Source: a virus
Lineage: Duplodnaviria; Caudoviricetes
IMG/VR virus record: IMGVR_UViG_2740892201_000001
Location: 1 to 64,000 of that record
Strand: one strand, 5' to 3'
Length of the DNA: 64,000 nucleotides
Shown: positions 46,147 through 60,268 of the stretch, one piece after another
Layout: each line of letters begins with the position of its first letter
Position numbering within the stretch: position 1 is the stretch's first letter
The notes under the pieces: generated by a model
The model's input: the letters and a program-made list of their open reading frames with translations, nothing else
What the model was told of the DNA's origin: nothing
Databases searched by the model: none
Made by a program: the position numbers and the translations under genes

Positions 46147-46221
46147 TGGTGTCCCCTGCAGGAATCGAACCTGCAACTAGCCCTTAGGAGGGGCTCGTTA
46201 TATCCATTTAACTAAGGGGAC
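46147..46221 (-). tRNA. argW: tRNA-Arg(CCT)
   Basis: GTCCCCTTAGTTAAATGGATATAACGAGCCC-CTCCTAA-GGGCTAGTTGCAGGTTCGATTCCTGCAGGGGACACCA cloverleaf with CCA end. Confidence 0.97.
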
Positions 46222-46414: not shown

Positions 46415-47584
46415 GTGGCGCTGAGTGATACCAAATTAAGAAGCATCAATGGCAAAGCTTACAACGGACCAGCGGAACTAACCGATGGTGACGGGCTGAG
46501 CGTTCGCATCACTCCATCTGGCACGATTACATTTCAGCACCGCTACCGCTGGAATGGAAAGCCTGTGCGTCTCACTGTCGGTCGCTACCCTTCAACATCG
46601 CTGAAAGATGCCCGCATTGCCGTAGGTGAGATGCGTGGATTGTACACGAAGGGGGTTAACCCAAAAACCTATTTTGCCGGAAGCACTGGTGTACTGACTC
46701 TTAAGGAGTGCCTGGATAACTGGTGGGAAAAATATGTTAAAGACCTAAAGCACAATACACAGGTGCTGTACAAATCAGTTGTGTACAACACCATGTACAA
46801 CGAATTCGAAGATGTGCCTGTTGCCAACATCCCTGTATCAGCCTGGGTCCAGTTCTTTGATAAACAGGAAAACCTGAATAAGAAGAAAGCCCGCGTTCTG
46901 TTGCTTCAACTCCGCTCAGTCATTCACTGGTGCATCAGCCGGCAGCTGATACCTTCATGTGAGATCACAAAACTGAGCGTCAAAAATATTGGCAAGAAGC
47001 CAGACGTTGGTGATCGAGTTCTGACCTATAGCGAGTTAGCAAAAATATGGGTGGCGCTTGAGAACAGCAAGATCGTCACTTCCAACAGGTTGCTTCATCA
47101 GATGCTATTGCTGTGGGGCGCTCGCTTGTCTGAGCTTCGCCTGGCTAACGCTGCTGAGTTTAATACCACCGATTGGATATGGACCACACCATCCGAACAT
47201 TCAAAGATGGGCAACATCATCAGGCGTCCTATCTTTGAGCAAATGAAGCCCATGGTGGAGCGCCTGCTAAATAGCGGGAATAAGGTTTTGTTTCCGGGGC
47301 AAGAACTCGACAAAGCTATTGATCGCTCTTCATCGAATTTGTACATGCGGAAACTGAGAGAGGCTATTGATATTCCTGAATGGCGCACCCACGACTTCCG
47401 CCGTTCATTGGTGACTAACTTATCAAGTGAGGGAGTCATGCCCCATGTCACTGAGAAAATGCTGGGGCATGAACTTGGTGGTGTCATGGCTGTGTACAAC
47501 AAACACGACTGGCTGGAAGATCAAAGAAAGGCATATGAGTTGTATGCAGATAAAATATTCTGGCACGTCAAACAGCTCGGTTAA
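46415..47584 (+). CDS. Tyrosine integrase (prophage 2), GTG start
   Basis: Arm-binding N-domain DGDGLSVR..P.G; GAR.SEL, HDFRR, LGH, VY. Confidence 0.93.
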   Translation: MALSDTKLRSINGKAYNGPAELTDGDGLSVRITPSGTITFQHRYRWNGKPVRLTVGRYPSTSLKDARIAVGEMRGLYTKGVNPKTYFAGSTGVLTLKECLDNWWEKYVKDLKHNTQVLYKSVVYNTMYNEFEDVPVANIPVSAWVQFFDKQENLNKKKARVLLLQLRSVIHWCISRQLIPSCEITKLSVKNIGKKPDVGDRVLTYSELAKIWVALENSKIVTSNRLLHQMLLLWGARLSELRLANAAEFNTTDWIWTTPSEHSKMGNIIRRPIFEQMKPMVERLLNSGNKVLFPGQELDKAIDRSSSNLYMRKLREAIDIPEWRTHDFRRSLVTNLSSEGVMPHVTEKMLGHELGGVMAVYNKHDWLEDQRKAYELYADKIFWHVKQLG

Positions 47585-47750
47585 TCCCTCCATCACAAAT
47601 CCATTTCTCAACCGCTCTGCGGCTATACCGCGCCGGATGTGTTAGCACTGGCGCTGGAAATCCATGCTGTTTGCGCAGCCGCCAGAGTGCCGTTCTCGCT
47701 TTACCAATTTCGTCCAAAACTTCTTTTTCACTCATAAAGTCGTGGTGCAT
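47568..47750 (-). CDS. AlpA-like excisionase
   Basis: FM..KEV...IG..RT.LWR.....FP.P; convergent with int. Confidence 0.8.
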   Translation of the reverse strand: MHHDFMSEKEVLDEIGKARTALWRLRKQHGFPAPVLTHPARYSRRAVEKWICDGGINRAV

Positions 47751-47800
47751 ATTCTTCTCCACACATTCCTGCTGCATCAGGTTTGTTTAGCCGTGACACG

Positions 47801-48148
47801 TCACGGCGTATTGATATTCAACTTCAGTTCATGCCAGCCGCTGGTGGCCCAGCACGCTGCTTCACCCTGGCAAGGGCATGACTGCACCGGCAGCTGCTCT
47901 TTGCACTTCCCGCACTGCTGGTGGGACAGCACTTCCAGCTGCTGCATCAGCTCAGCAGCATCCTTCCGAATTAACAGCGCTATGTACTCGTTCAGCTCAT
48001 ATGGTTCACGACCGAAGCGGCGTGTGGCGCAGTTCTGCGCCAGCATCACCAGTTCCTGACTATCCAGCGCCAGCTCCAGTTTTTTACCACCGGCAGCGGC
48101 CTGTCTGGCACGCTGCGCGGCTTTGCGTTCGGCGGGGGATTTAGGCAT
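47801..48148 (-). CDS. Hypothetical protein with C-terminal Cys cluster
   Basis: KSPAERKAAQRARQ; CxxC...CxC...C. Confidence 0.75.
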   Translation of the reverse strand: MPKSPAERKAAQRARQAAAGGKKLELALDSQELVMLAQNCATRRFGREPYELNEYIALLIRKDAAELMQQLEVLSHQQCGKCKEQLPVQSCPCQGEAACWATSGWHELKLNINTP

Positions 48149-48278
48149 TTGTCACCGCCGCTTTAACGGCTTGCCACACAATTTCAAGTATCGATGACCA
48201 GGCCAGATATGTATGAATACCCGCCACAAATCCAAACCCAACAACCATGGCATACAGTAAAGCGTTGCACTTAGACAT
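48141..48278 (-). CDS. Small membrane protein (45 aa)
   Basis: Manual translation MSKCNALLYAMVVGFGFVAG...; coupled overlaps. Confidence 0.5.
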   Translation of the reverse strand: MSKCNALLYAMVVGFGFVAGIHTYLAWSSILEIVWQAVKAAVTNA

Positions 48279-48937
48279 CACTCCACCTCCACGCGCTTAA
48301 ACTCAATGACCCACACCCACGGGTTAGCCAGCCAGCTGTCATCGCCGTAGATAGACTTCCATAACGTAACGAAGGAACCGCGTGCGCTCAGCTGGTGCTG
48401 AGTCCAGCCGGGCTGATAATGACGCCAGAAACCGCCCCGTAACTGCTCCACGCCTTCCGCGCGTGCATCGACTTCACTGATATCGTACATCCGCTCCACA
48501 CGAACGCCGGTAATCTCCAGCGTTATGCGGGAAGCCCAGCGCGGCATGTGGATGGATGGGCGCCAGCGGCCTTCTTTCGGCCAATCGTCTGGAATAGTTG
48601 CGCGGTAAGCCATGTCGTGGCTGTATTGGTCAATGTTGTATCTTGCCCACGTCTCACGCACCCACAAGCGATCACCAATTGCACCAAAAGGACAGGTGTA
48701 GCCCTCATCATCGCTGGCCACACCAAAAACTTTTTTCTTGGCTGGCTGAAGGTAGCCATCTTTATCGACCATGCCGGGCGTATACCAGCGCGCGTTAAAG
48801 TCCGTTTTCAGTTCCATATTCATCGGACAGAAATCGGCAGAAGGCTGCACCCGCATGATCCGGCGCGTCTGAGTCTTTCTGCCGTCGAGAACTGCACGAA
48901 CCATGTCGGCGTTAAAGATGACTGGACGCTCTTTCAT
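48278..48937 (-). CDS. ASCH/PUA-like phage protein
   Basis: MVRA.LDGRKTQTRR, GDRLWVRE, W.PSIHMPRWASR, NPWVWVIEF. Confidence 0.85.
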   Translation of the reverse strand: MKERPVIFNADMVRAVLDGRKTQTRRIMRVQPSADFCPMNMELKTDFNARWYTPGMVDKDGYLQPAKKKVFGVASDDEGYTCPFGAIGDRLWVRETWARYNIDQYSHDMAYRATIPDDWPKEGRWRPSIHMPRWASRITLEITGVRVERMYDISEVDARAEGVEQLRGGFWRHYQPGWTQHQLSARGSFVTLWKSIYGDDSWLANPWVWVIEFKRVEVE

Positions 48938-49515
48938 TTCGCCTCCTCAATGTTGCGCAGGATGGCGGCGCGGCACAAGTTGAATCCTTCAGCTCTTGAC
49001 TCAAGGGCTTTCTGAGCATCAACCGGCCTGCTGAAAGGTTCAACAACCATTTCATCTGGCACCAGCCCCGCCAGGCTGACGGCGGGCGCGGGGCGGGTGA
49101 ATAGATTGATAATCCGCCGGGGGGCTGCGTTAGACGTTACTGGGTCTACAGTGAACAAATATCCGCAACCGTGATTTTTAACGTCCCGCAATTCCTGCTC
49201 GTCTGTCCACGCCACAGGCTGCTGCTTCTCCAGCTCTGCCAGCTTCGCCCGCATCACACTGCGCTCAGCATCAAGGTTATCAATCGCACGCTCAGCCGTT
49301 GCCAGCTTCGCCTCTGCTGCTTCTGCGCGCTGCTGCCAAGCAAGAGCGCCTTCAAGGTTCTTCTGCACTTCCTGTTCCAGCGCCCGGAATGCTTCGGCAA
49401 TAGCTGCAGCAGACTCGTCGATTGCTTTCCGGCGAGTGGTGACATCAACGTCACGCGAACCCGGCGCACCATATTTCGGATACAGCGCTTCAACTAACTC
49501 ATTCAGCTTTTCCAT
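48934..49515 (-). CDS. Ead/Ea22-like protein
   Basis: Shares central module with 2215-2724; GFN.CRAA.L. Confidence 0.7.
   Translation of the reverse strand: MEKLNELVEALYPKYGAPGSRDVDVTTRRKAIDESAAAIAEAFRALEQEVQKNLEGALAWQQRAEAAEAKLATAERAIDNLDAERSVMRAKLAELEKQQPVAWTDEQELRDVKNHGCGYLFTVDPVTSNAAPRRIINLFTRPAPAVSLAGLVPDEMVVEPFSRPVDAQKALESRAEGFNLCRAAILRNIEEAK
49068..49249. repeat. ~180 bp segment shared with 2364-2546
   Basis: Direct-orientation near-identical copy. Confidence 0.9.
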
Positions 49516-49527
49516 TACTCACCATCC

Positions 49528-49932
49528 TTAACCCATGCATTCCAGATACAGCCCGCTGGCAATCAGACGGGCGCGGCGTTTTGCTGCTTCTCGGTGGCGC
49601 TTCTTTGCCTCTTCAGAGCAGTCATTCCTGTAGTTGATCACCATTGGCTTACATGGTGGGGAGGCAACACGACGTGGATTTCTGACCAGGGTGTAAGTGC
49701 GGTCAATATAGCCGCCGCCAAGGCTGATTTGATTAGAGGCTTCAACCTGCAGCGTTTCGCCTCCTCTGCGTAATATGTGAATAACTAAACGGTTGAACTC
49801 ACTGAGGGTCATACCGAGACGTTCTGCCAACTCCCGGCCCGTTGCCGGGCCCTTTGATAACTGCCAGGCTAACTTTTCACTGAATCCGGCATTCGCCCCA
49901 TTGCTGCGCCGGAATTGGGCGACCTTTTTCAT
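49528..49932 (-). CDS. Putative HTH protein, paralogue of 3489-3884
   Basis: TGRELAERLGM HTH-like segment. Confidence 0.7.
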   Translation of the reverse strand: MKKVAQFRRSNGANAGFSEKLAWQLSKGPATGRELAERLGMTLSEFNRLVIHILRRGGETLQVEASNQISLGGGYIDRTYTLVRNPRRVASPPCKPMVINYRNDCSEEAKKRHREAAKRRARLIASGLYLECMG

Positions 49933-50372
49933 GACACCACCTTCAGGGTTACCGTGCGTGAGCGGAGTAAATCCATTTCCATTTGGGAAATGATGTTGAT
50001 CGCATGTGAAATACCCGGTTGCTGGTGGTTACCCAGTGTTGTTACAGCGCGGCGGGCTTCCCCAAGTGCTTCACCACGCAATGTTCGAATCCACTGATTA
50101 CAGGCTGGAGTGGCAAGCGCTGCATTCAGATCGTCAATCAGGGTCATATCAGCCCCGGCAATCTGAAGCGCCGCGATGGTATCAGGCAGGACGCTGTTGA
50201 TACGCAGCACCTCTCCAGCCATGAGATTGGCGCGAACGGTGGCCACGTCGAGACGTGATGCCAGTTCAGTTACCATCTTCGCCATGTCCATAAGAGAGGT
50301 TTCTTTGCCGATGTTCTTAGCGAACTGGTGGCCGGCAGCGACGACTTCTTTGTTCGATTTAAAATGATGCAT
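49929..50372 (-). CDS. Hypothetical phage protein, start MHHFKSN
   Basis: GAGGG SD; ELASRLDV and TPA motifs. Confidence 0.7.
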   Translation of the reverse strand: MHHFKSNKEVVAAGHQFAKNIGKETSLMDMAKMVTELASRLDVATVRANLMAGEVLRINSVLPDTIAALQIAGADMTLIDDLNAALATPACNQWIRTLRGEALGEARRAVTTLGNHQQPGISHAINIISQMEMDLLRSRTVTLKVVS

Positions 50373-50382
50373 GTCATCGCCC

Positions 50383-50547
50383 TCAGTGAATGGTGATGTT
50401 GATGGTTTTATTAAGCCGCTCAGCTTCACGCTGCGCCTTAATGGGATTACTGATTACCGACCCGTCAGGCATAACCCAGCCGTTGAGGATATGGCTGTAG
50501 GGCAGGGTGATAATGCCTACGGTGATATGGTCGTTTGGCTTTTCCAT
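50383..50547 (-). CDS. DUF1317 family protein
   Basis: D.I.VG.ITLPYS....GW..PDG..I.NPIKAQ..AE.LN. Confidence 0.8.
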   Translation of the reverse strand: MEKPNDHITVGIITLPYSHILNGWVMPDGSVISNPIKAQREAERLNKTINITIH

Positions 50548-50684
50548 GAAACTCTCCACACACGATTTTTGGTTGCATGAATCCCTTGCCAGTGACGGCA
50601 ATAAAAAACTTTTGGGATTCGCTTAAGTTGGCTGGTGGGTTACTGCAATAACCCACAGCCCGATTACTCCACACACTTGAAAGG

Positions 50685-50806
50685 TTGCTGCGGTGCCGGG
50701 TGCCTCCCGGTGCTCTGGTCAGACTGACAGACACCAGAGCGGAGACTCTTAGACTGTATGCAATCTTTGTCAGTCTTCCGCGTGCGCTGGCCGCATTCAC
50801 CACAAC
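50685..50806 (-). ncRNA. Multi-stem structured RNA, copy 1
   Basis: GYGGTGAAT...CACCGGGAGGCACCCGGCACCGCAG shared with 59652-59755. Confidence 0.6.
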
Positions 50807-50936
50807 GATAAGGACACTTACTCCACGTCTCTAAAGCGTTCGAAAACACCCGCTTTGCAAATGTCCTTGTCGTTGTGAAAAAGGGCGGTTAAACCAAACC
50901 ATCATGAGTAACCGCCAACACAGCAATTCAGTACTC

Positions 50937-51086
50937 TTAAAACGCTGGTCCGCGAACCACGTTTTCTAATTCACACTTCACACTCACCACACCGGCATCA
51001 CCGCAACAGACAACATCAGCATCTGGAAAGAGCCTCAAAAAAGTAATCAGGTCCCGGAGCGTTGTGTTCGACATGTTTTTAATCAT
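50937..51086 (-). CDS. Hypothetical protein (49 aa), first ORF of PL operon
   Basis: Manual translation MIKNMSNTTLRDLITFLRLFPDADVVCC... Confidence 0.5.
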   Translation of the reverse strand: MIKNMSNTTLRDLITFLRLFPDADVVCCGDAGVVSVKCELENVVRGPAF

Positions 51087-51198
51087 CTCCACAGTACTGC
51101 CCTCACACCACTGCAACTGCTTTAGCGAATCATCCCGATCTTCTTACGCCTCGGGCGGCTACTTCGTGGGCGTCCTGCCTATTCGCTGTTGATAGATT

Positions 51199-51262
51199 CA
51201 TTATTGCCGGAAGTGATAAATCAGTCAACACCGCCGGAGATATTATATATCCTGCGGTGTTT
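51199..51262 (-). promoter_or_regulatory. PL with lambda-like OL1-OL2-OL3
   Basis: 17-bp sites at 51202, 51226 (CAACACCGCCGGAGATA) and 51246; -35 TTGACT; spacing as in lambda. Confidence 0.85.
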
Positions 51263-51366
51263 ATGTCATTGATTGAAATGATATTAAAAATTTTCTGCAC
51301 GCATAATCATCAGATTGAGCATTTAGTAATGTATGTTTTGAGTGTTTTTTGATCGATGGGAGCACC

Positions 51367-51569
51367 ATGAGCAAGCAATCAGAAGAACTTTATGATGAGA
51401 TGTGCAGGGTGGTCGGAGACGTGGTTCTTACGCTTCATGATTACGGAGTTGAATCGAAACAAATGTGATAGCAGATGCACTTAGAACGGCGCTGGCATCG
51501 AAGAATCCCGCCCAGTCTGAGCTACTGGTCAAAGCAATGGAAGCTGCGGTAAAAGTACTGGAGCGTTAG
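51367..51569 (+). pseudogene. Frameshifted FumD/YdhZ (DUF2767)-like gene
   Basis: MSKQSEELYDEMCRVVGDVVL..GVESKQ // VIADALRTALA..SEL..AME; one base missing near 51463. Confidence 0.7.
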
Positions 51570-51573
51570 GCAT

Positions 51574-51642
51574 AAAAAAGCCCGCGCTAGACGGGCATAA
51601 ACTCGTTCAATTGGGGCAAACCATCTGTCAGCATAAGCTGAC
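51574..51642 (-). ncRNA. Candidate sRNA E (homologue of D)
   Basis: -10 TATCAT, 5' hairpin GTCAGC/GCTGAC, core TTGCCCCAATTGA, terminator plus U6. Confidence 0.55.
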
Positions 51643-51720
51643 GATAATAATGATACTTACGATGTGAAAATTAGGAAATAGATGCTCCACAATTTGTTAA
51701 GCACCGCAAATTTTGTGCGA

Positions 51721-51799
51721 AAACAAAAAGGCCCGCCGGACGCGGGCTAGCAGTATCAAAGCATTCAAAAGAGAAGTTTTGAGCATCAGTTGAGCTCAT
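51721..51799 (-). ncRNA. Candidate sigma28-dependent sRNA F in cI 3' UTR
   Basis: FliA-type promoter, 5' hairpin TGAGC/GCTCA, terminator GCCCGC/GCGGGC plus U-tract. Confidence 0.5.
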
Positions 51800-51804
51800 T
51801 CAGA

Positions 51805-51831
51805 TTATCGTCAAATACTGAGAAATCTTTA
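51805..51831 (-). promoter_or_regulatory. Sigma28 (FliA)-type promoter overlapping the cI stop codon
   Basis: TAAAGATT-N11-GACGATAA. Confidence 0.6.
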
Positions 51832-52542
51832 TTGAAATGTCTCTTCAGGCCATTGAGCTTTCACCACCTTACCTATGATCCGGCAACTATGATCACAGTC
51901 TAAAATCCGATAAGCAGGATTGAGCGGCACAAGATAGCTTACACCCGCATCCTTCTCATACTTTTTGAAAGTCACTTCTGAGTCAGCATTCGCAGACGCC
52001 ACGCAGAAGTCGCCAGTCTCAACCGGTTCTGCCGGGTCGATGAGGATCAGCATACCCTCTGGGAAACTTGGACGAACGCCCTGCGGCGCGGTCATTGAGT
52101 GACCCTTCACTTCAAGCCAGAACGCTTTATCGCTGGCTTTCTTAGTTGTAGGGACCCATGCCTTTGCATCTCTGGAGGTAAAACTACCCACCTCAGAAAA
52201 ATCACCAGCCTGGACATAAGTGAACAGGGGGTATTCATAGTGATTTGACCTAATGTTTTCTTCACCAATCGACTGATACATGTCAGCGATCTCAGCAGCA
52301 ATTTTAGGACTAAATTCTCCAACACTTACCTTCAAGAATTTGGCTAATGCTGAGGCATTGCTGGGATTCAGAGCATTTACTCCATTCAGCAAAGATGCGA
52401 CAGCTGATTGACCTACGCCCAGTGCGTCCGCCACAGACTCTTGGGAAATACCCAACTCAGCTTTTTTGCGCTCATAGATTGATTTCAGTCTCTGCGCGTC
52501 TTCGATTTGCTCGTTAGTGAGCGGCTTTTTCTTTGCATTCAT
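51829..52542 (-). CDS. cI: Lambda-type CI repressor
   Basis: KKKPLT.EQ.EDA.RLK.IYE.KK.ELG.SQESVAD; VQAG; FWLEV.G.SMTAP; ends WPEETF. Confidence 0.97.
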
Positions 52543-52618
52543 ATGTGAAATTTATCACCGCACGGGATAAATAACTAACACCGCGCGTGTTGACTATTTT
52601 ACCTCTGGCGGTGATAAT
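52543..52618. promoter_or_regulatory. Lambda-like OR3-OR2-OR1 with PRM and PR
   Basis: TATCACCGCACGGGATA 52553, TAACACCGCGCGTGTTG 52576, TACCTCTGGCGGTGATA 52600; PR TTGACT-17-GATAAT. Confidence 0.95.
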
Positions 52619-52643
52619 TAAGCCTATACATTAGGAGATGATT

Positions 52644-52865
52644 ATGAGCCAGAGAATAAAACTCAAAGATTATGTAGAGCAGTTTGGCCAGACGAAAGCA
52701 GCTACCGATTTAGGCGTTTACCAGAGCGCAATCTTTAAAGCGATTTCACTCAAACGTGACATCACCGTGATCCTCCATGAAGACGGGACGATTTCAGCGG
52801 AAGAAGTGAAACCGTTCCCTGCAAATCGTAAGTGTGATCACAAGTCTATATCGACAGCTTTCTAA
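52644..52865 (+). CDS. cro: Lambda-type Cro
   Basis: QRI.LKDY...[18 protein letters not shown]...AEEVKPFP. Confidence 0.95.
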
Positions 52866-52893
52866 TTTTAACCACAGTTTAGAGGGCTTAACC

Positions 52894-53442
52894 GTGGATC
52901 AGAAGCACTGGCAAGTTGAAAAGCAGCCGGCATGGCTGGTGGTAGCAATAAAGAAGACGATTTCAAGTCTTCCGGGTGGGTACTTAGAAGCAGCTGAATG
53001 GCTGGGTGTAACCGAGGATGCGCTATTTAACCGCCTGCGCACCAATGGCGATCAAATTTTCCCAATGGGTTGGGCAATGGTTCTGCAGCAGGCAAGCGGC
53101 ACAAAGCACATCGCTAATGCCGTGTCCCGTCAATCGAACAGCGTCAACGTACCGCTGGTGGACATTGAGGATGTTGATAACGCGGATATCAATCAGCGCC
53201 TGATGGAGTCGGTTGAGTGGATTGGCAAGCATTCTGCTTACATTCGCAAGGCAACCGCTGATGGCGTGATTGATGCGGCTGAGCGTGAGCAGATTGAAGA
53301 GAACAGCTATCAGGTAATGGCGAAGTGGCAGGAGCATCTGACGCTGCTGTATCGCGTTTTTTGCGCTCCAGAAAAGGTGAACGCCGCTGGATTGCAGTCC
53401 GCGGCGTTCGATGCGACTAAATCAACGTGTGTGGAGAACTAA
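52894..53442 (+). CDS. YmfL-family regulator (cII position), GTG start
   Basis: W.VEKQPAWLV.AI...LPGGY.EAAEWL..L.NRLR. Confidence 0.85.
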   Translation: MDQKHWQVEKQPAWLVVAIKKTISSLPGGYLEAAEWLGVTEDALFNRLRTNGDQIFPMGWAMVLQQASGTKHIANAVSRQSNSVNVPLVDIEDVDNADINQRLMESVEWIGKHSAYIRKATADGVIDAAEREQIEENSYQVMAKWQEHLTLLYRVFCAPEKVNAAGLQSAAFDATKSTCVEN

Positions 53443-53446
53443 TCGC

Positions 53447-53797
53447 GTGATCAATTTAACCAGAAAATCAGGATTACCGCAATTCCGTTGCCTTCCCTCT
53501 GCTGGTGGCCGCTTCAGCAATGAGCCGCTGCGGTATGTGCTTAATGTACCAGGCGTCAGCGAAGAAGTTAACCACGGCTTTGTTGAGTGGGCTGTGGGTG
53601 ATGCTAACCAGCGAATGAGGGCGATCACATGCGAGAACTCGACCGTATTTTTCGAGACAAGCGCGGCATCCCTGTGCGGGTCATCCGCTGGGAGCCAGAA
53701 AACGACCGCGTTATCTACCTGCGTGACAAGTACGAACATGGTGAGTGCTTCAGCTCTCTCGAACGGTTCAAGCAATATTTCAGAGAGGTTGGGGTAA
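53447..53797 (+). CDS. Hypothetical protein, GTG start
   Basis: TGTGTGGAG RBS 10 nt upstream; 3' half overlaps DUF4222 frame. Confidence 0.45.
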   Translation: MINLTRKSGLPQFRCLPSAGGRFSNEPLRYVLNVPGVSEEVNHGFVEWAVGDANQRMRAITCENSTVFFETSAASLCGSSAGSQKTTALSTCVTSTNMVSASALSNGSSNISERLG

Positions 53798-53811
53798 ATC
53801 ATGAGCGTTAA
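53629..53811 (+). CDS. DUF4222 family protein
   Basis: F.D.RG.PVRVIRW...RVIYLR..YEH.EC...L..F. Confidence 0.8.
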   Translation: MRELDRIFRDKRGIPVRVIRWEPENDRVIYLRDKYEHGECFSSLERFKQYFREVGVNHER

Positions 53812-54694
53812 ATTATCTGCATTCGTCTGGGACGGCTGCGCATCATCCGGCATGAAGATCACTATGGTAGCCATCATGGCACGCCTGGCTGACTTCTCAA
53901 GCGACGAAGGCGTTTGCTGGCCTTCAATCGCCACCATCGCCCGTCAGATAGGCGCTGGTCCGAGTACTGTTCGTACTTCGATCCGTAAGCTGGAAAGTGA
54001 TGGCTGGCTGACCAGCACTTCACGTCGCAAAGGTAACCGCAACAACTCCAACATGTATCAGCTGAACGTCAAAAAACTGCGCGAATCAGCTGCTGCTCAC
54101 CTGTCAGAATCTGAGGCGTCAGAATCTGACACATCAAAATTTGACGCATCAAAATCTGATGCACCGAATTTTGACGCGTCAAATTTTCACCCGTCAGAAT
54201 CCAGCAAAAATAACAGTTTTGACCCGCCAGAATCTGGCGACGATCCGTCAGTAAAATCAAAACATGATCCATCAGATAAAAAACCCTTTTGTCAGGTTGC
54301 GTCGCAACCAGACGATGAGTGGTCAATTATCAATCGCTCCCGTCAGGTTTTACGTCACCTGAACAAAACTAGCGGCGCAAAACACACCGAGGCGCAGTCG
54401 TCGATGGGGCACATCAAATCCCGCCTGAAAGACAAGTTCACGGTGGAAGAGCTTTGTCTGGTGGTGGATTACAAGCACGCACACTGGGAAGGCACTGAGG
54501 AATACCAGTACATGCGTCCCAAAACGCTATTCATCCCCGGCAATCTGCCTGGTTACCTCCAGTCAGCCACCAAATGGGATAAGGCCGGTCGCCCGCCGCG
54601 CTCTGAGTGGAGCGCCCTGAAGCGCAACATGCAGCGCGATATCACGGTCATTCCAAAGCCTGACAGCTCAGTGCCTCACGGCTTTCGCGGTTAA
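53801..54694 (+). CDS. Replication initiator (HTH_36 plus phage C-terminal domain)
   Basis: RLADFS.DEG.CWPSI.TIARQ; Y.RP.TLF.P. Confidence 0.9.
   Translation: MSVKLSAFVWDGCASSGMKITMVAIMARLADFSSDEGVCWPSIATIARQIGAGPSTVRTSIRKLESDGWLTSTSRRKGNRNNSNMYQLNVKKLRESAAAHLSESEASESDTSKFDASKSDAPNFDASNFHPSESSKNNSFDPPESGDDPSVKSKHDPSDKKPFCQVASQPDDEWSIINRSRQVLRHLNKTSGAKHTEAQSSMGHIKSRLKDKFTVEELCLVVDYKHAHWEGTEEYQYMRPKTLFIPGNLPGYLQSATKWDKAGRPPRSEWSALKRNMQRDITVIPKPDSSVPHGFRG
54103..54238. repeat. Origin iterons, ~15-bp tandem TCAGAATCTGAC-like repeats
   Basis: At least 7 degenerate copies in the middle of the rep gene. Confidence 0.8.
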
Positions 54695-54706
54695 CGGGAG
54701 AAAATC

Positions 54707-55141
54707 ATGATCAACCACGAATCAAAAATTCTTGAACTGATTACCCGTAATGGTCCGCTGAAGGTCCGCGAACTCTGCAAGCTCATGGGTCTGCATGAGA
54801 CCTCCGTGAAGCGCTTTATCAAACCGCTGTTCACTAAGGGGCTGCTGAAGCGGGCAAGCGACTGGAGCTACTCAATCAACACTGACCCCTTGCCGGTTGA
54901 AAGCGAGAAATTCGCCCGCCTGGCGAAGCAGGCCAGCGAACTTGAGGCGAAAGGGTTCTGCCTGCGAGCTGCACAGGTATGGCGTGAAGCGATGATGGTG
55001 GCGAAGTTCGATGCATCTCGCAATGAAGCCAAAGAGAACTGCGACCGCTGCGCCGTTAAGGGCTCACTCAACTGTGGCAGCTACGGCGGACTCGACACCG
55101 GCCGCATCATTTCAGCCAGTGTGAACAGGGATTTGTTATGA
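54707..55141 (+). CDS. HTH plus PerC-family regulator
   Basis: N-terminal wHTH; A.ELEAKG...RAA.VW. Confidence 0.75.
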   Translation: MINHESKILELITRNGPLKVRELCKLMGLHETSVKRFIKPLFTKGLLKRASDWSYSINTDPLPVESEKFARLAKQASELEAKGFCLRAAQVWREAMMVAKFDASRNEAKENCDRCAVKGSLNCGSYGGLDTGRIISASVNRDLL

Positions 55142-55260
55142 GAACGCACCTGAAGAGCCACTACGAATGCAACGAGATTTTCTACCGGGCCATTCCCACT
55201 GCAGTAGTGATGATTGCCGCCCTGATTTTTGTCCTGACATGGGAGCTGACCACAGCATGA
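55138..55260 (+). CDS. Small membrane protein (40 aa)
   Basis: MRTHLKSHYECNEIFYRAIPTAVVMIAALIFVLTWELTTA; ATGA overlaps at both ends. Confidence 0.55.
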   Translation: MRTHLKSHYECNEIFYRAIPTAVVMIAALIFVLTWELTTA

Positions 55261-56720
55261 GCACGTTATCTCAGTACTACAAACAGAAAGAGCAAAATGG
55301 CACCGGCACCACCGTCAAAAAAACTTTCATGGTACCGTTCGAAGAACTCTACACAGTGGAAGGTGAGCAGGGGCGTCCACTGAATAAAGAACACGCTGAA
55401 AAAATGTGTGAGCTTTGGATGTCAGGTACAGACTTGCCAGCGCTTCTCGTTGAAGTAACTGAACGGGGTGTGAAGATCATTGATGGTCAGCATCGTCATT
55501 ATGGCGCTTATCTGGCAAGAGAAAAGGGGCATCAGATACCCCGAATCGAATGTAAGGATTTTATCGGTACGCCGCTTGAGAAACTGGCAATCCAGACCGG
55601 TAGCAGCGAAGGCCTGCAGATAACGCCAATTGAACGTGCCATCAATTATAACAAGGCAAAAAATCAGGGTCACAGCATCCACGAGATCGCTAAGGCTTTT
55701 CATCGATCAGTAACTGACGTAGAGAATCACCTCCAGCTGCTGTCTTCAGGTGACACACTGCTGGATATGGTGAGCTCAGGAGAAGTATCAGCAACAACAG
55801 CTATGGAGTTGAGCAAGAAGCACGGACCAGCAGCGGGTCGCATTGCAACTGAGCAGCTTGAAAAAGTTAAGGCCTCTGGCAAGAAGAAGCTGACTCGTTC
55901 AGCAGCCATCGTTTCACCGGCAAAACTGCGTGAAAAAATCCGCGCAGAGCATGCAGCATGGTCGCAGGAAACGTTCGGCGATGTAGGTCCGGTTGGTCCT
56001 CTGAAGCACCTGGCAAAAGAGGCGATGGAAGCTGCTGAAGCACCTGATGACCTGTCTGAATGGGCTGACCTTCAGTTTCTGCTGTGGGATGCCATGCGCC
56101 GCGCCGGTATTACTGAAGAAGAGCTCAATTCCGCCATGGAATTGAAACTCAGCGTCAACAAGGCCCGCAACTGGCCCGAACCCAAAGACGGTGAGCCGCG
56201 CGAACACCTGAATGCTGATAGTGAGGAACCCGTTCAGTCTGAAAAAGACTATGGCGATGACCTGCCATTGCTGAAGCACGAAATTCTTGAGAAGAGCGGT
56301 GTTGACGTGTGGGCCTGCGTTCAGGCCGCATTCAAGATGAAAGCTGAGTACACCTACAGCGAATCCAAATGGGCGCATACCTGGGCGGCAGACTCTGTTG
56401 AGAATCCTACCTGTGTGACAGTTCCGGCAGAGACGATTGCCAGTGCAGTACGCCTCATCAAGCAGCACCAGGATGAACAGGCGATCAAAAAGTGGCTATC
56501 AGAGCAGCATGATGACCCTGAACTGGTGACAGAGCAGCTGAACCGCTTCACAGGGACGCTCACTGACTTACGTCAGGATCATCCGTGTACTGCTCAGGAT
56601 TTCATAAAGCTGGTGGAGCAGGTAAATCGGGATTGCTGGTCCAATTACCGCATGCTGCGTCAGGCAGTCCGTGAGGTGGCTGGGCAGATGACAATTCCGG
56701 GTATTGGGGAGACTGCATGA
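55257..56720 (+). CDS. ParB-like domain fused to DUF550 dATP/dGTP pyrophosphohydrolase
   Basis: IIDGQHRH; then H..WS..TFG.VGP.GPLKHL.KE..EA...DLSEWAD...K...N..R.WPEPKDGEPR.H. Confidence 0.85.
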   Translation: MSTLSQYYKQKEQNGTGTTVKKTFMVPFEELYTVEGEQGRPLNKEHAEKMCELWMSGTDLPALLVEVTERGVKIIDGQHRHYGAYLAREKGHQIPRIECKDFIGTPLEKLAIQTGSSEGLQITPIERAINYNKAKNQGHSIHEIAKAFHRSVTDVENHLQLLSSGDTLLDMVSSGEVSATTAMELSKKHGPAAGRIATEQLEKVKASGKKKLTRSAAIVSPAKLREKIRAEHAAWSQETFGDVGPVGPLKHLAKEAMEAAEAPDDLSEWADLQFLLWDAMRRAGITEEELNSAMELKLSVNKARNWPEPKDGEPREHLNADSEEPVQSEKDYGDDLPLLKHEILEKSGVDVWACVQAAFKMKAEYTYSESKWAHTWAADSVENPTCVTVPAETIASAVRLIKQHQDEQAIKKWLSEQHDDPELVTEQLNRFTGTLTDLRQDHPCTAQDFIKLVEQVNRDCWSNYRMLRQAVREVAGQMTIPGIGETA

Positions 56721-57082
56721 AGTTAACCCTCCCGTTCCCGCCAAGCGTTAACACGTACTGGCGTAACACCAGAAAGGGAGTATTGATCAGCGCCTCCGGG
56801 CGCTGTTTCCGCTCCAACGCATTTGCCGCCATTCTTCAGCAGCTCAAACGCCGACCACAGCCGATTACAGTGAACGTGCAGGTTACCGTGCTGCTGTTTC
56901 CTCCAGACAAGCGCCAGCGTGACCTTGATAACTACCTCAAAGCCCTGTTTGACAGCCTCACGCATGCCGGTATATGGGGCGATGACAGGCAGATTAAGCG
57001 ATTCACTGTAGAGTGGGGACCTGTAACCAAAGGCGGTAAGTCTGAGGTGGTAATCAGCGAGTTTCAGCCGGTAGCGGCATAG
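56717..57082 (+). CDS. rusA: RusA Holliday junction resolvase
   Basis: LPFPPSVN.YWR, PPD.R.RD.DN..K...D.L..AG...DD.QI. Confidence 0.95.
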   Translation: MKLTLPFPPSVNTYWRNTRKGVLISASGRCFRSNAFAAILQQLKRRPQPITVNVQVTVLLFPPDKRQRDLDNYLKALFDSLTHAGIWGDDRQIKRFTVEWGPVTKGGKSEVVISEFQPVAA

Positions 57083-57232
57083 GTCCGCAACTGGTTACAT
57101 GACCAGTGAAATTGGGTATAGTGTGTGCTGTACTGGTGATTGCAGTTGCCGTACCAAGGTTGGTCCCGTTCACTTGCAGGTGATGGGGCGGGGCCATTTA
57201 AAAATGTTGTTCCAGTGTGTGGAGAGGTCAAA

Positions 57233-57949
57233 ATGCTGAATCAATCAGCGGGTGCTATTGCGCCTGTAGTCAATGCTATTCAATCCCCGATCATGACCAG
57301 CCGTGAGATTGCCGAACTGACCGGCAAAGAACACAAAAATGTCACTGTAGATATTCGCCGTATGCTGGATGACCTGGGAGAAGATGCGCTGAAATTCCAG
57401 CGTATCTATTTAGATACCATGAACCGACAGCGAACTGAGTATCACCTCGACCGTGAGCACACCGAATGCCTCATCACCGGCTATAGTGCCATTCTCCGCA
57501 TGAAGGTGATTAAGCGGCTACATGAGCTGGAAGACAGCCAGCCAGTTAAAATCCCGCAAACCTTTGCTGAAGCGCTCCGCCTGGCCGCCGAAATGGAAGA
57601 GGAAAAAGAGCGCCTGCAGCTGCAGCTGAATGAAGCTGCACCAAAGGTTGCCTTCGTGGATCGCTATGTCACGGCCACCAGTTCAATGACTTTCCGCCAG
57701 GTGGCAAAACTTCTTGAGGCGAAAGAGCCTGAATTACGCCTGTTCCTGATTGAAAGCCGTGTTATGTACCGCCTGAATGGCGTCCTGACCCCCTACAGCC
57801 AGCACATTGAGGCCGGTCGTTTTGAGGTAAGGACCGGAACCACTACCGAATCAAATTACATGTTCAGTCAGTCCCGGTTTACCGCGAAGGGCGTTCAGTG
57901 GATAGGCGGGCTATGGACGGCGTACAAAGCCGCTGGTGGTGCTGAGTGA
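57233..57949 (+). CDS. Rha/KilA-C antirepressor
   Basis: MTSREIAELTGK.H..V..DIR; PQTFAEALRLAA; PKV.F.D; T.KG..W. Confidence 0.9.
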   Translation: MLNQSAGAIAPVVNAIQSPIMTSREIAELTGKEHKNVTVDIRRMLDDLGEDALKFQRIYLDTMNRQRTEYHLDREHTECLITGYSAILRMKVIKRLHELEDSQPVKIPQTFAEALRLAAEMEEEKERLQLQLNEAAPKVAFVDRYVTATSSMTFRQVAKLLEAKEPELRLFLIESRVMYRLNGVLTPYSQHIEAGRFEVRTGTTTESNYMFSQSRFTAKGVQWIGGLWTAYKAAGGAE

Positions 57950-58962
57950 GGGCATTGCTTACACCTGAAGTAGCGCCGCGCACAGGGATTGTGCTGCTGA
58001 AGCCGGGGCCGGAGCTCATGAGGCTATTTAGTGGCCGCGTGGTTATCAGCACACCTTCAATCGATATGGCAGATCTGCCATCAGGGCGGCTGAATGACGG
58101 CACACAGCCGCTGCTTGATGAACCCTCACTGATTCCCTTCTTCAGTCATGAACGTGTGATAGCGGCTGCTGGTGGGCCTAGTGCGCTGGCATCTTTCGTC
58201 CAGTCATTTGGCTGCTGCCAGTGGGAGCAGTCCGGGACATGGCATCATCATGAGTTCACAGTGTCAGAAATCGAAAACGGCCTGGTTTCTCTGTGCTACA
58301 GCCACGATAATGAGTTCAGGGAAAACGGCGTACCCGGTAGCCTGGAGAATATTGCCAAAGGCAATACTGCGCTCTGGATCATCAGGGCCGCATGCAGCCA
58401 GATGGCATTACCATTCGATCACAACCTGACCCTGCCCGAGCTTTGCTGGTGGGCCACTCTGAATGATGTTATTGACCTGATACCGGAGGCACCGGCCCGG
58501 CGCGTTCTGCGCATGCCAAAGGAGACTATCCAGAGCGGGGAGCTGAAAGAAGCCCGAATTGTTCCGGCTCGACCGGCCCGCGAGGTGATTCAGGATGCTG
58601 CACAGGTCGTCAAAAAGATTATCAGCCTGCACGCGGACCCTGAATCACCGGAATCCTTCATGAAGCGTCCCAAGCGCAAGCGCTGGGAGAGTGAGAAGTA
58701 CACGCGGTGGGTTAAGTCACAGAGCTGTGCATGTTGCGGCATGCAGGCTGACGATCCTCATCACATCATCGGGCATGGTCAGGGAGGCATAGGGACAAAG
58801 GCCCATGATTTATTCGTGATACCGCTTTGCAGGGCGCATCACGACGAATTACACCGCGACCCAAAACTTTTTGAGTCAAAATACGGCAGTCAGGTTGAGC
58901 TGCTATTCAGGTTCCTGGATTTCGCGATTGCAGTCGGCATTATCGGGACAGATAAAAAATAA
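57946..58962 (+). CDS. DUF968 (YdfU-like) protein with HNH-like C-terminus
   Basis: RALLTPE.A...G.VL.KPG; C.CCG...DDPHH; PLCR.HH.ELH. Confidence 0.9.
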   Translation: MRALLTPEVAPRTGIVLLKPGPELMRLFSGRVVISTPSIDMADLPSGRLNDGTQPLLDEPSLIPFFSHERVIAAAGGPSALASFVQSFGCCQWEQSGTWHHHEFTVSEIENGLVSLCYSHDNEFRENGVPGSLENIAKGNTALWIIRAACSQMALPFDHNLTLPELCWWATLNDVIDLIPEAPARRVLRMPKETIQSGELKEARIVPARPAREVIQDAAQVVKKIISLHADPESPESFMKRPKRKRWESEKYTRWVKSQSCACCGMQADDPHHIIGHGQGGIGTKAHDLFVIPLCRAHHDELHRDPKLFESKYGSQVELLFRFLDFAIAVGIIGTDKK

Positions 58963-58983
58963 AATGTGTGGAGAGGATTAAAT

Positions 58984-59370
58984 ATGCGTGACATGTCACA
59001 GGTATTAGAGCGCTGGGCGGGATGGGCTAAATCAGAAAGTAGCGGTGTTGATTACTCAGCAATTGCGGCTGGATTCAAAGGCCTGTTGGCGCAGGATTCA
59101 AAATTAACACTCACCTGCAGCGATAATGATGGATTAGTCATTGAGGGCTGTCTGGCGCGGCTTAAAGAAAAGCGCCCGGATGAGCATGCGATCATTGTGC
59201 TTCATTACTTTTTCAATATCTCAAAGCGCAACCTTGCTAAACAGGCCAGGCGCGATGAAAAAATAGTGAGAATTGAAATTCAGATGGCTGAGGGTTTCAT
59301 TGAAGGTTGTCTGGCAATGCTGGATGTGCGGCTGGATATGGATGCCGAACTGACGCCGAAAAAATATTGA
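58984..59370 (+). CDS. Q: Late antiterminator Q (short type)
   Basis: MRD...VLERW..W, CSD.DGL.I, AEGFI.G.L. Confidence 0.9.
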   Translation: MRDMSQVLERWAGWAKSESSGVDYSAIAAGFKGLLAQDSKLTLTCSDNDGLVIEGCLARLKEKRPDEHAIIVLHYFFNISKRNLAKQARRDEKIVRIEIQMAEGFIEGCLAMLDVRLDMDAELTPKKY

Positions 59371-59471
59371 AAAAACCTCTCACGCGGTCCGCATTTTCCT
59401 TAGTAATCTGATAAGGTCAATTACAAGCAGTGCAGCTTATCTGCTAAAAGTCAGTTCTAAACGTGGATGTC

Positions 59472-59511
59472 AAGGCGCCTCTGGCCTCACCAGCCTGGAG
59501 GCGTTTTTATT
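59472..59511 (+). terminator. tR' terminator
   Basis: GCGCCTCTGG/CCTGGAGGCGT plus T-tract. Confidence 0.75.
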
Positions 59512-59651
59512 GTAAACATCCCTGCAAGGGATGGTGAAAAGATTATCCACACTGAGGGATAGAAAAATTAACCCTGTTGCCGACGGGCAAGGCAGTTACC
59601 GCTTTAGCGTCAGGGTTTCTAAATGCCCGACTCTGCACTAAGATGACTTCA

Positions 59652-59755
59652 CTGCGGTGAATCCCATCTAAGCGATGGGGCGTGATGGCAAATGTTATGC
59701 GGAACGCGAGCCTGAAGCCATAACAGGGCTCACCGGGAGGCACCCGGCACCGCAG
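59652..59755 (+). ncRNA. Multi-stem structured RNA, copy 2
   Basis: Closing stem CTGCGGTG/CACCGCAG with four inner hairpins. Confidence 0.6.
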
Positions 59756-59776
59756 ACCATCCAATTTTCTAAATTC

Positions 59777-59808
59777 AAAGGCTCACTTCGGTGGGCCTTT
59801 TCGTTTTT
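59777..59808 (+). terminator. Late-leader terminator
   Basis: AAAGGCTCAC-TTCG-GTGGGCCTTT. Confidence 0.8.
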
Positions 59809-59905
59809 GCGCACGCCAATCAGCCTCCACACACATTTTGACGCCGTGGCGTTGCGCAATTTCCTTCTGACTACCGACAGCACCTGCCAATTAACGGAGG
59901 TGAGG

Positions 59906-60268
59906 ATGAAACGCATGCCGGACAAAGACGTTGGGTTCTGGGCAAGCCTGATTGCCTGGCTTTACGCCCACAAAAACGAAACCGGCTATGCGGGTCTGGC
60001 CGGAGTCATGGCGATTCTCAGAGCCACTTACGTTGGCAAAGACGCATGGTCACGCCGCCTGCTTGATGCAGCGATGTGCAGTGTCTTCGCCTTCTTCCTG
60101 CAGCCAAGCCTGCAGGTAATTGGTTCGGTGTTTAACTGGCACTTCAGTGAAGACATTACGCGGGTTGCTGCGGTCTTTCTTGGGTTCCTCGGTGTTGACT
60201 ACGTGTCAACGAAGATACGCCGCCAGATAGATAAGCGACTGGGGGACAGTAATGCTGACAGCCAATAG
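59906..60268 (+). CDS. Lambda-family holin with dual-start motif (Met-Lys-Arg-Met)
   Basis: MKRMPDK; three TMs; GFLGVD; GGAGG SD. Confidence 0.88.
   Translation: MKRMPDKDVGFWASLIAWLYAHKNETGYAGLAGVMAILRATYVGKDAWSRRLLDAAMCSVFAFFLQPSLQVIGSVFNWHFSEDITRVAAVFLGFLGVDYVSTKIRRQIDKRLGDSNADSQ

Follow-up and report, generated by a model that had tools for sequence, protein, structure and literature searches.

A start-associated word at the ribosome sites of early genes in an AH07/SfV-like prophage and its complement in a late-leader hairpin loop

RESULTS AND DISCUSSION

The word and the early genes behind it

The IMG/VR virus record IMGVR_UViG_2740892201_000001 has a length of 88,421 bp, and the stretch analyzed here, referred to as the window, consists of its positions 1 to 64,000. 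The region of interest covers the early section of a temperate phage of the AH07/SfV type, a Pantoea-type prophage, whose nearest named relative is Pantoea phage AH07 (51% of the query covered, 87% identity). A leftward early operon occupies the minus strand and a rightward early operon the plus strand, and the subject of this study is the 9-mer TGTGTGGAG, exact copies of which, designated a to g from left to right, recur in both.

Three copies are found on the minus strand of the leftward operon. Copy a (47757-47765) represents the Shine-Dalgarno region of the Cox-like gene xis (47568-47777), whose ATG (47750-47748) follows 6 nt after GGAG, and is also present in AH07; copy b (50554-50562) has the same role for the DUF1317 gene (ATG at 50547), and copy c (50667-50675) is separated by 12 nt from a partial STnc100-like structure that precedes it and by 10 nt from a downstream hairpin that is called b/c below. 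On the plus strand, copy d (53428-53436) lies within the last codons of the CP76-type CII gene (52834-53442) and, at the same time, in the Shine-Dalgarno region of the next gene (phrog_1170), which starts 10 nt after the copy with GTG (53447) and in other lineages with ATG. Copies e (57216-57224) and f (58965-58973) are the Shine-Dalgarno regions of the Rha/ANT antirepressor gene ant (ATG at 57233) and of Q (ATG at 58984), respectively; xis, DUF1317, CII, ant, and Q were all assigned with Pfam. Copy g (59825-59833) is on the minus strand again; at this place the plus strand reads CUCCACACA, complementary to the word, within the loop of hairpin II of the late leader. A short form of the word, TGTGGAGA (51085-51092, minus strand), serves as ribosome site for the small gene that comes first after pL (ATG at 51074).

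In copies a, b, e, and f, the word is followed by the letter A and, after 5 to 9 nt, by the ATG of xis, DUF1317, ant, and Q, and the spacing between GGAG and the start amounts to 6 to 10 nt for these four genes and the gene after CII. On its 3' side, GGAG is continued by A, then A or G, then G; the conserved extension is the 5' UGUGU. Five copies are intergenic; of the other two, d overlaps the end of CII and c an open frame. The same ten letters stand before the main early genes and are found once, mirrored, at the head of the late genes. An earlier note, made from the sequence alone, had proposed that the 9-mer marks the ribosome-binding sites of key early genes, and this holds for xis, DUF1317, the gene after cII, ant, and Q. 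Five or six of the copies are Shine-Dalgarno regions of early genes that stand free of their upstream neighbor, and TGTGTGGAG is the form taken in this phage by a start-associated word, (GU)n-GGAG-A, that makes up the Shine-Dalgarno region of such genes.

Copy c has no convincing gene start (a GTG is located 10 nt downstream), and it is the copy that is kept across all lineages, Shigella phage SfII included. The gene starts for copies c and d, as well as that of the holin gene mentioned below, were chosen by eye. An open frame for a cysteine-rich protein of 61 amino acids (50664-50849, minus strand) spans the STnc100-like structure and ends in copy c; it is probably no gene, since a length difference of 4 nt breaks the frame in one of the related lineages (that of GGTGTGGAG, see below). 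Three further roles of the word were considered and discarded: copy g as ribosome site of a minus-strand gene, whose frame enters a terminator and variable DNA with a T run of varying length; a part in an antisense, paQ-like promoter, for which the sole candidate, a -10-like hexamer located opposite the Q slot, is not conserved among relatives; and an extended pairing with the tail of the 16S rRNA, which, inspected by hand, includes one mismatch and brings no gain.

Enrichment, exactness, and orientation

The seven exact copies of TGTGTGGAG in the window compare with 0.58 expected, and an order-3 Markov model of the whole record of 88,421 bp, in which TGTGTGGAG is the most over-represented of all 9-mers, predicts 0.27. 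All copies are located within 47757-59833, and the rest of the 88-kb record is free of them. The comparison with shuffled sequence that the earlier note had suggested thus confirmed the enrichment, and its impression that the 9-mer is missing from the other prophage of the window, termed prophage 1, also proved right, with no copy outside of 47.7 to 59.8 kb. Sites with at most one mismatch number 16 (7 exact and 9 others) versus 14.8 expected, i.e., near-copies are not enriched, and the word is therefore sharply defined.

An origin of the repeats by chance, through composition, or as a by-product of protein coding has a negligible probability. The overlap of copy d with the last codons of CII and of copy c with an open frame would be in line with it, but none of 100 shuffles reached seven copies, the P value of the Markov model is 1.5e-8, five copies are intergenic, and the word remains invariant amid varying flanks in 11 to 31 aligned relatives.

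The shorter core GTGGAGA occurs at 12 sites of the whole record, 6 of them in the early region of 11 kb and 1 in the late region of 28 kb. The 11-mer GTGTGTGGAGA, the longer form of the word in this phage, has zero and one copies in two whole Pantoea genomes (5.0 and 4.3 Mb; neither of them that of the actual host). The clustering in the early region and the near-absence from these Pantoea genomes are indicative of a phage early-gene word rather than of a host habit. Among the matches listed in a search of published text for the 9-mer at the beginning of a printed word, only eukaryote or primer contexts were found.

With respect to local transcription, six copies are sense and one is antisense; three sense sites belong to each early operon, and five are at gene starts. 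The six copies previously listed were all correct in coordinates and strand, and the partial copy noticed at 51087 corresponds to GTGGAGA at 51086-51092. The statement that the 9-mer is always in the transcribed sense applies to six of the seven copies and fails for copy g, which had been missed and lies on the minus strand of a late leader transcribed from the plus strand. As regards a site acting at the level of DNA, the sense orientation of six of the seven copies is not significant on its own. It is the position of the word at ribosome sites, together with the G.U-only variation of neighboring hairpins (see below), that points to RNA.

Lineage-specific words at the same slots

The comparison with relatives was based on 80 viral loci around CII homologues (L002 to L081), taken from at least 599 relatives reported; lineage labels are our own and refer to the loci named with them. 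Phage AH07 has six copies at matching places and lacks copy e because it has no ant gene. Copy d is present in 42 of the 42 loci with a CII that is at least 90% identical (L002 to L043), and the layout of these loci is uniform, with minus-strand copies to the left of CII, plus-strand copies to the right, and one last minus-strand copy. At slot d, GTGGAGA is kept in nearly all of 44 genome loci, down to a CII identity of 45 to 55%, and the strand layout of GTGGAGA is maintained in prophages of many enterobacterial genera.

The preceding letters differ between lineages. The window, AH07, and L002 to L043 use GTGTGTGGAGA. In L044, L078, L079, and prophages of Pantoea latae, P. septica, and P. alvi, GGTGTGGAGA is present at slots c to f and CGTGTGGAGA at slot b; GGTGTGGAG occurs at three to four slots of the three numbered loci, and TGTGTGGAG was not found there. 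In 30 of the 33 loci L045 to L077, AGTGGAGAA stands at two to four places, and Shigella phage SfII has TGTGGAGAA at slots c, d, and f. Common to all lineages is the core GUGGAG(A), and the GU tract before it varies by lineage. Judging from these alignments, the word has changed in concert: each genome keeps one form throughout, and the form found at a given slot varies from lineage to lineage. A shared trans-acting reader would produce such a pattern.

The flanks of the word behave differently. At slot f, the 11 sequences fall into two unrelated Q alleles (8 and 3), which diverge immediately behind TGTGTGGAGA; slot e is occupied by a portable cassette of about 55 nt, consisting of hairpin e and the word, with a variable left flank and at least three different gene starts on its right; and at slot b, at least four different sequences directly follow the word among eight close relatives. 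Since homology ends after the word at these three slots, the word travels before unrelated genes or marks points of module exchange.

These joints might suggest that the word is just a portable ribosome-binding cassette with no dedicated partner, that short joints of this kind serve module exchange, with copies spread by recombination, and that only joints at gene boundaries survive. The abrupt end of homology at slots b, e, and f fits this explanation well, as do the slot-e cassette of about 55 nt and a late-leader block of about 75 nt (see below), each with variable DNA on both sides. Slots a and the majority form of e share 14 nt, slots e and f share 12 nt, and in a second lineage slot d and another ribosome site have AGTGGAGAAAC plus GCATGA in common; GTGGAG at slots d and f is old, being kept at 45 to 55% CII identity and in SfII. 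However, descent alone leaves the lineage-specific, genome-uniform words at the same slots unexplained, and the letters 5' of GGAG do not extend the pairing with the 16S rRNA tail (by hand). An identity of 9 to 11 nt is, moreover, too short for efficient exchange between slots. On balance, we regard a plain cassette as a rather doubtful explanation. The word appears to be functional as a ribosome site and, by its exactness and concerted change, to be more than that; a common partner that, besides the ribosome, reads all copies would plausibly account for the retention of the extra letters.

Slots c and d deserve a separate remark. In the second lineage (L048; 8222 and 10572) and in SfII (L165; 3601 and 6279), 14 to 15 letters (GTGGAGAAACTAAC) are identical between slot c of the pL operon and slot d of the pR operon. 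Slot c is followed there by a GC-rich hairpin and no start codon, and c and d are twin elements, one per early operon.

Hairpins upstream of the word

All (T/A)TGCAG hexamers that the earlier note had placed upstream of the copies are present. The hexamer WTGCAG by itself is not enriched in the window (119 versus 125 expected), and the same is true of ATTGCAGT (5 versus 3.07 expected; 21 of 100 shuffles reach 5); four of the five ATTGCAGT sites are located in the early region (50642-58934), all of them in the transcribed sense. The combined pattern TGCAG-N16-45-GTGTGGAG occurs three times versus 0.14 expected, and both the close lineage and the GGTGTGGAG lineage retain this layout at slots d, e, and f. 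A bipartite arrangement of hairpin and word, with the hairpin 17 to 37 nt before the word, is conserved at three slots in at least 50 loci; the co-conservation of the two motifs in relatives, on which the earlier note had made its proposal depend, is thus found at slots d, e, and f.

Three hairpins with a UUGCAG tip stand out. In hairpin b/c (50635-50656, minus strand; GUGGGUUA-UUGCAG-UAACCCAC), changes of the 3' arm in relatives give only G.U pairs, and such a variation solely to G.U fits an RNA of the transcribed strand. Hairpin d (53379-53409, plus strand) has an outer stem of 9 bp and an inner GGA/UCC, ends 18 nt before copy d, folds with a z score of -2.67, and is retained in a second lineage with two compensatory pairs. 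The closing pair of hairpin e (57162-57195, plus strand) is U-A, C-G, or U.G in 25 sequences. In all three, the predicted fold closes a U.G pair and leaves a UGCA loop. By their folds and their pairing-compatible variation, hairpins b/c, d, and e appear to be real RNA structures that move with the word as cassettes.

The other candidates fared less well. The element CCUG-AUGCAG-CAGG (47768-47781, minus strand) is situated directly before copy a, and its stem of 4 bp is weak alone (z score of the region, -1.75); a stronger hairpin of 8 bp is found at 47790-47807, near copy a. CGA-TTGCAG-TCG (58925-58936, plus strand), inside the DUF968 gene, is unsupported as a structure, with a z score of +1.22 that is no better than shuffles, and the hairpin at 57140 is weak. 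Slots d and f share GATTGCAGTC at an equal distance from the word and in different reading frames. The claim that WUGCAG hairpins precede most copies can accordingly be upheld for b/c, d, and e, where the proposed check for covarying stems revealed pairing-compatible variation, and finds no support at 58928; at 47768-47781 and 57140 it is weak. A hairpin of this kind at every copy is not supported. An Rfam scan recovered no family over the words or the UUGCAG hairpins, its other results being STnc100, a tRNA, and sub-threshold noise.

The conserved hairpin-word layout at three slots in at least 50 loci would also be expected if the word, with or without the UUGCAG hairpin, were the binding or cutting site of a protein, i.e., a translational regulator or an endoribonuclease of phage or host. 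Such a reader would agree with the exactness of the word, its sense orientation, its restriction to early genes, and its lineage-specific forms, even in lineages without a complement of the word. A precedent is available in RegB of phage T4, for which a form of the early-gene Shine-Dalgarno region is described that allows a phage factor to switch off early messages together (PMC1702504). The RegB target described there is GGA with an A-rich 3' part and nothing 5' of it, whereas the extension of the present word lies 5' of GGAG. No match to a RegB homologue was obtained with Pfam or PHROGs in 20 early proteins, none of the unassigned early genes was placed in an RNA-binding or nuclease family by these databases, and an ASCH lead for a protein of 219 amino acids was below the bar of the tool (0.89; family in 31% of members). 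A dedicated protein is an unlikely reader of the word.

The earlier note had also considered an N-independent antitermination signal, resembling rrn boxC. Copies c and d could then be the pL and pR sites of a boxC-like, nut-like, or HK022-put-like RNA acting in cis: they are at comparable distances from pL and pR, each beside a hairpin, have the above-mentioned 14 to 15 nt of GTGGAGAAACTAAC in common in SfII and the second lineage, and a terminator-like hairpin can be seen by eye upstream of copy c; in addition, family scans of the early genes recognized no N-like gene. On the other hand, most copies stand 6 to 10 nt before start codons and not once per operon, the word and its hairpin come in reverse order at c relative to d, and the likeness to rrn boxC extends over just 7 to 8 letters. 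A single boxA-like pattern, with up to one mismatch allowed, was found 54 times versus 47.9 expected, and none of these sites was beside copy c or d on the right strand, which leaves the signal without a boxA-like partner and, with the empty Rfam result, without a known family. With six or seven sites tied to start codons, this part of the note did not stand up, and antitermination is a highly improbable function of the word.

The late leader and the complement of the word

Downstream of Q, an RNA of the STnc100 family (RF02076; 59626-59809, plus strand) was detected with 87 bits versus a gathering score of 47, over model positions 1 to 206. It ends in a terminator hairpin (59777-59800) with a T run and is the short leader from pR' to tR'. 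Directly behind it, hairpin II (59807-59859, plus strand) has a stem of 12 bp and a loop of 28 nt, which harbors CUCCACACA, the plus-strand reading of copy g, 16 nt past the T run of tR'; in the following, this complement is called the anti-word. The late leader is delimited by the holin gene (59906-60268, plus strand), which has a different Shine-Dalgarno region of its own, GGAGGUGAGG.

Hairpin II is well conserved. A block of about 75 nt with CTCCACACAC in the loop of a 12-bp stem is present in 30 of 31 aligned sequences, the 31st (L081) being not homologous; its neighbors are Q/pR' modules of at least four kinds on one side and holin modules of three kinds on the other. One pair of the stem covaries (AU, GC, and GU in 13, 8, and 1 distinct rows, respectively), 93.5% of the cells pair, and none of 500 shuffles reaches the covariation score; the stem is also obtained in the minimum-energy fold (z score of -3.24). 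In most of these relatives, the loop is complementary to 10 to 11 nt of the early ribosome sites (GUGUGUGGAGA). The hairpin also recurs in many lineages with quite different, covarying stems. L081 and L204 had been considered as relatives of the block and were set aside as not homologous.

A second type of loop, UCUCCACUUU, is found in a homologous hairpin with a covarying stem in L117, L126, and L155. The ribosome site of Q is UAAAGUGGAGAU in L117 and GUAAGUGGAGAA in the L126 phage, complementary over 10 and 9 nt, respectively, to the loop of the same phage, and the three letters next to the core differ in a matching way in loop and Q site. The two remaining early words of the L126 phage (CAGUGGAGAA) match the loop over 8 nt. 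A scan for the loop of the close lineage gave 61 stretches, including one chance hit; 49 of the remaining 60 have a sense copy upstream, and the other 11 hold only 15 to 2,556 nt of upstream sequence, less than the largest spacing seen.

From these observations, a mechanism can be put forward in which excision, antirepression, and late activation would share the word as a translational operator. The leading candidate for its partner in this lineage is an RNA; the conserved hairpin loop 16 nt beyond tR' contains the exact complement (U)CUCCACACAC. Read-through past tR', driven by Q, would produce this anti-ribosome-site RNA, which could then pair over 10 to 11 nt with ribosome sites of early genes, those of Q, ant, and xis among them, and lower their translation; the UUGCAG hairpins might stabilize the mRNA or offer a second contact for the partner. 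A shared translational operator with the late-leader loop as the leading partner is the explanation that we put forward, tentatively and at somewhat less than an even chance.

Several observations weigh against this operator. The anti-word was noticed after the fact, and as the loop is only 0.5 to 3.9 kb away from Q, the co-occurrence of the two may be simple linkage. The GGTGTGGAG lineage has three to four sense copies, all uniform, three whole records of it contain no antisense copy, and its homologue of hairpin II has an unrelated loop; uniformity of the word therefore does not need the loop. In the close lineage, L012 combines six exact sense copies with a different hairpin, and L014 has a mismatch of one letter in the anti-word. 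In L066, L110, and L044, no meaningful match was found between the loop and the ribosome site of the phage's own Q, even though hairpin II is conserved, and in L117 only the Q site matches beyond the core of 7 nt. Moreover, copy c lacks a following start codon in other lineages, i.e., not every copy is a ribosome site. The primary role of hairpin II is probably something else, and the loop is a candidate partner in some lineages rather than the general cause of the uniformity of the word.

In its strongest form, the shared operator would turn the word and its mirror copy into a phage-wide riboregulatory switch, in which a Q-dependent anti-word shuts down the early set, with negative feedback on Q, and the lineage-specific length of the GU tract acts as an address code against cross-talk between co-resident relatives. 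Such a switch is speculative, and we consider it improbable.

A role of the anti-word in cis, as an anti-Shine-Dalgarno sequence for the holin gene, was rejected; the block is identical before three different holin starts, and in the predicted fold the holin site pairs instead with a U/C-rich stretch after the stem. As to the lineage of AGTGGAGAA, an exact complement of its own word is located in L062 (18586-18594), and also in L050, L063, and L070, in an unpaired intergenic stretch after the lysis genes. The late-region sequence TTCTCCACT was not accepted as a third matching anti-word, as most loci of this lineage with a complete right flank are without it, and it may be due to chance.

Some further features relate to this leader. 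A partial STnc100-like structure is encoded in the pL operon (50689-50804, minus strand; 28.8 bits, below the gathering score), where a stretch of 25 nt (50688-50712) is identical, in transcript sense, to 59731-59755 of the late STnc100 RNA; the exact 25-mer is kept in 29 of the 80 viral loci and in AH07. A second terminator-like hairpin with a T run, seen by eye and unlisted by the terminator scan, lies between the end of Q and the STnc100 match (59476-59510). In a Salmonella prophage (L110, 15977-17038) and an Enterobacter prophage (L095, 18763-19824), a gene for a DNA methyltransferase-like protein of 353 amino acids is inserted between Q and the late-leader hairpin, in the manner of a moron inside the late leader.

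Related systems and significance

Antisense control of antirepressor ribosome sites is exerted by the c4 RNA of phages P1 and P7, the sar RNA of P22, and the CI RNA of P4. These RNAs resemble the predicted partner of the word in that a structured phage RNA exposes a loop complementary to several ribosome-site targets, including an antirepressor operon; in the present phage, CUCCACACAC is likewise exposed, in the 28-nt loop of a 12-bp stem. They differ in that they are immunity-region RNAs that act in lysogens, whereas here a Q-dependent late leader would face six predicted targets in two operons. A joint change of loop and target was seen for Q in two loop types and was not seen in the GGTGTGGAG lineage, L012, L014, L066, and L110. 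With respect to the adjacent leader, a recent preprint describes STnc100 as a prophage small RNA related to PasD and RNAs from pR' to tR' as base-pairing small RNAs (bioRxiv 10.64898/2026.05.13.724894). A full-length member of the family directly precedes hairpin II, but the anti-word itself is outside the family model, 16 nt past the terminator; STnc100 was found in two and the anti-word in four of seven related loci scanned.

The closest counterpart of the word is the start-associated sequence (SAS) of Cluster K mycobacteriophages. According to two reports (PMC3203893, PMC12699233), it is an asymmetric 13-bp word with a Shine-Dalgarno core, located 3 to 7 bp before start codons of different gene families, restricted to the non-structural half of the genome, missing from the host, and present in one orientation except for a single opposite site to which no gene is tied. 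About half of the SAS sites have an upstream inverted-repeat feature with a subcluster-specific consensus, the extended SAS (ESAS) (PMC3203893, PMC12699233). Its authors allowed for an RNA or protein partner of host or phage, and the function of SAS was still called unverified in 2025.

The likeness extends to nearly all of these points. The present word, too, is short, asymmetric, and repeated, includes a Shine-Dalgarno core, stands a few nucleotides from starts, is confined to the early region, is nearly absent from Pantoea genomes, and occurs in six sense copies and one opposite copy; an upstream inverted-repeat feature is present at part of the sites (b/c, d, and e), and the consensus differs by lineage. 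The earlier note had called the inferred regulon undescribed; the feature is less novel than stated there, as SAS and ESAS are of the same kind. There are clear differences, however. The Cluster K consensus GGGATAGGAGCCC shares only GGAG with the word, the phages and their hosts are unrelated, and Cluster K genomes have 11 to 19 sites compared with 6 to 8 here. The arms of ESAS are conserved in sequence and, according to its authors, show no covariation of an RNA hairpin, whereas the stems described here are unrelated in sequence, share their tip, and in three cases display pairing-compatible variation; the opposite copy is, furthermore, located in the loop of a conserved late-leader hairpin. 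The two words are best regarded as analogous and not homologous.

For regulatory cassettes that are conserved at module joints, the nearest model is provided by the promoter early stem-loop (PeSL) elements of T4-type phages, short conserved stem-loop cassettes that flank variable genes at joints of module exchange (PMC2839356, PMC4122927). They comprise a promoter and a terminator-like stem-loop and are of recombination length, whereas the sequence shared between the slots studied here amounts to 9 to 14 nt including a ribosome site, with no promoter.

Start-associated words in phage genomes had previously been described solely for Cluster K mycobacteriophages. The same kind of feature is now seen in lambdoid, SfV-like phages of Enterobacterales, with easy genetics and at textbook genes such as xis, ant, and Q, and it goes beyond the mycobacteriophage case with lineage-specific forms at the same slots and a concrete candidate partner, the late-leader anti-word. 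A shared operator, if true, would add a translational layer to the lysis-lysogeny circuit, and the full riboregulatory switch would explain the single opposite-orientation SAS of Cluster K, unexplained since 2011. If there is no shared operator, the words retain their use for marking joints between modules and true start codons in a large prophage family.

Other features of the early region

The remaining genes of the region were also identified with Pfam. The immunity genes cI (51829-52542, minus strand) and cro (52638-52865, plus strand) flank intergenic operators (52525-52618) that are 89% identical to the OR region of lambda, with TATCACCGC-type sites forming an inverted pair at 52552-52617; unlike the remainder of the phage, the immunity region is lambda-like. 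The plus strand further encodes a replication protein with a Phg_2220_C domain, a MarR/PerC-like regulator, a protein of 517 amino acids in which a ParB-type helix-turn-helix domain is fused to a dATP/dGTP pyrophosphohydrolase (55167-56720) and whose counterpart in AH07 is annotated as a partitioning protein, RusA, and the DUF968 protein mentioned above. Inside the replication gene, direct repeats of about 15 nt (GTCAGAATCTGA-like; four to five units) and an inverted repeat of 34 nt at 54103-54201 resemble the iterons of an origin. A match to a sigma-70-like promoter (9/12) at 57094-57122, in the 150-nt gap before the antirepressor cassette, indicates that ant may have a promoter of its own. 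A tRNA gene (46150-46221, minus strand) adjoins the integrase gene (46415-47584) and is the likely attachment site of the prophage under study, prophage 2 of the window.

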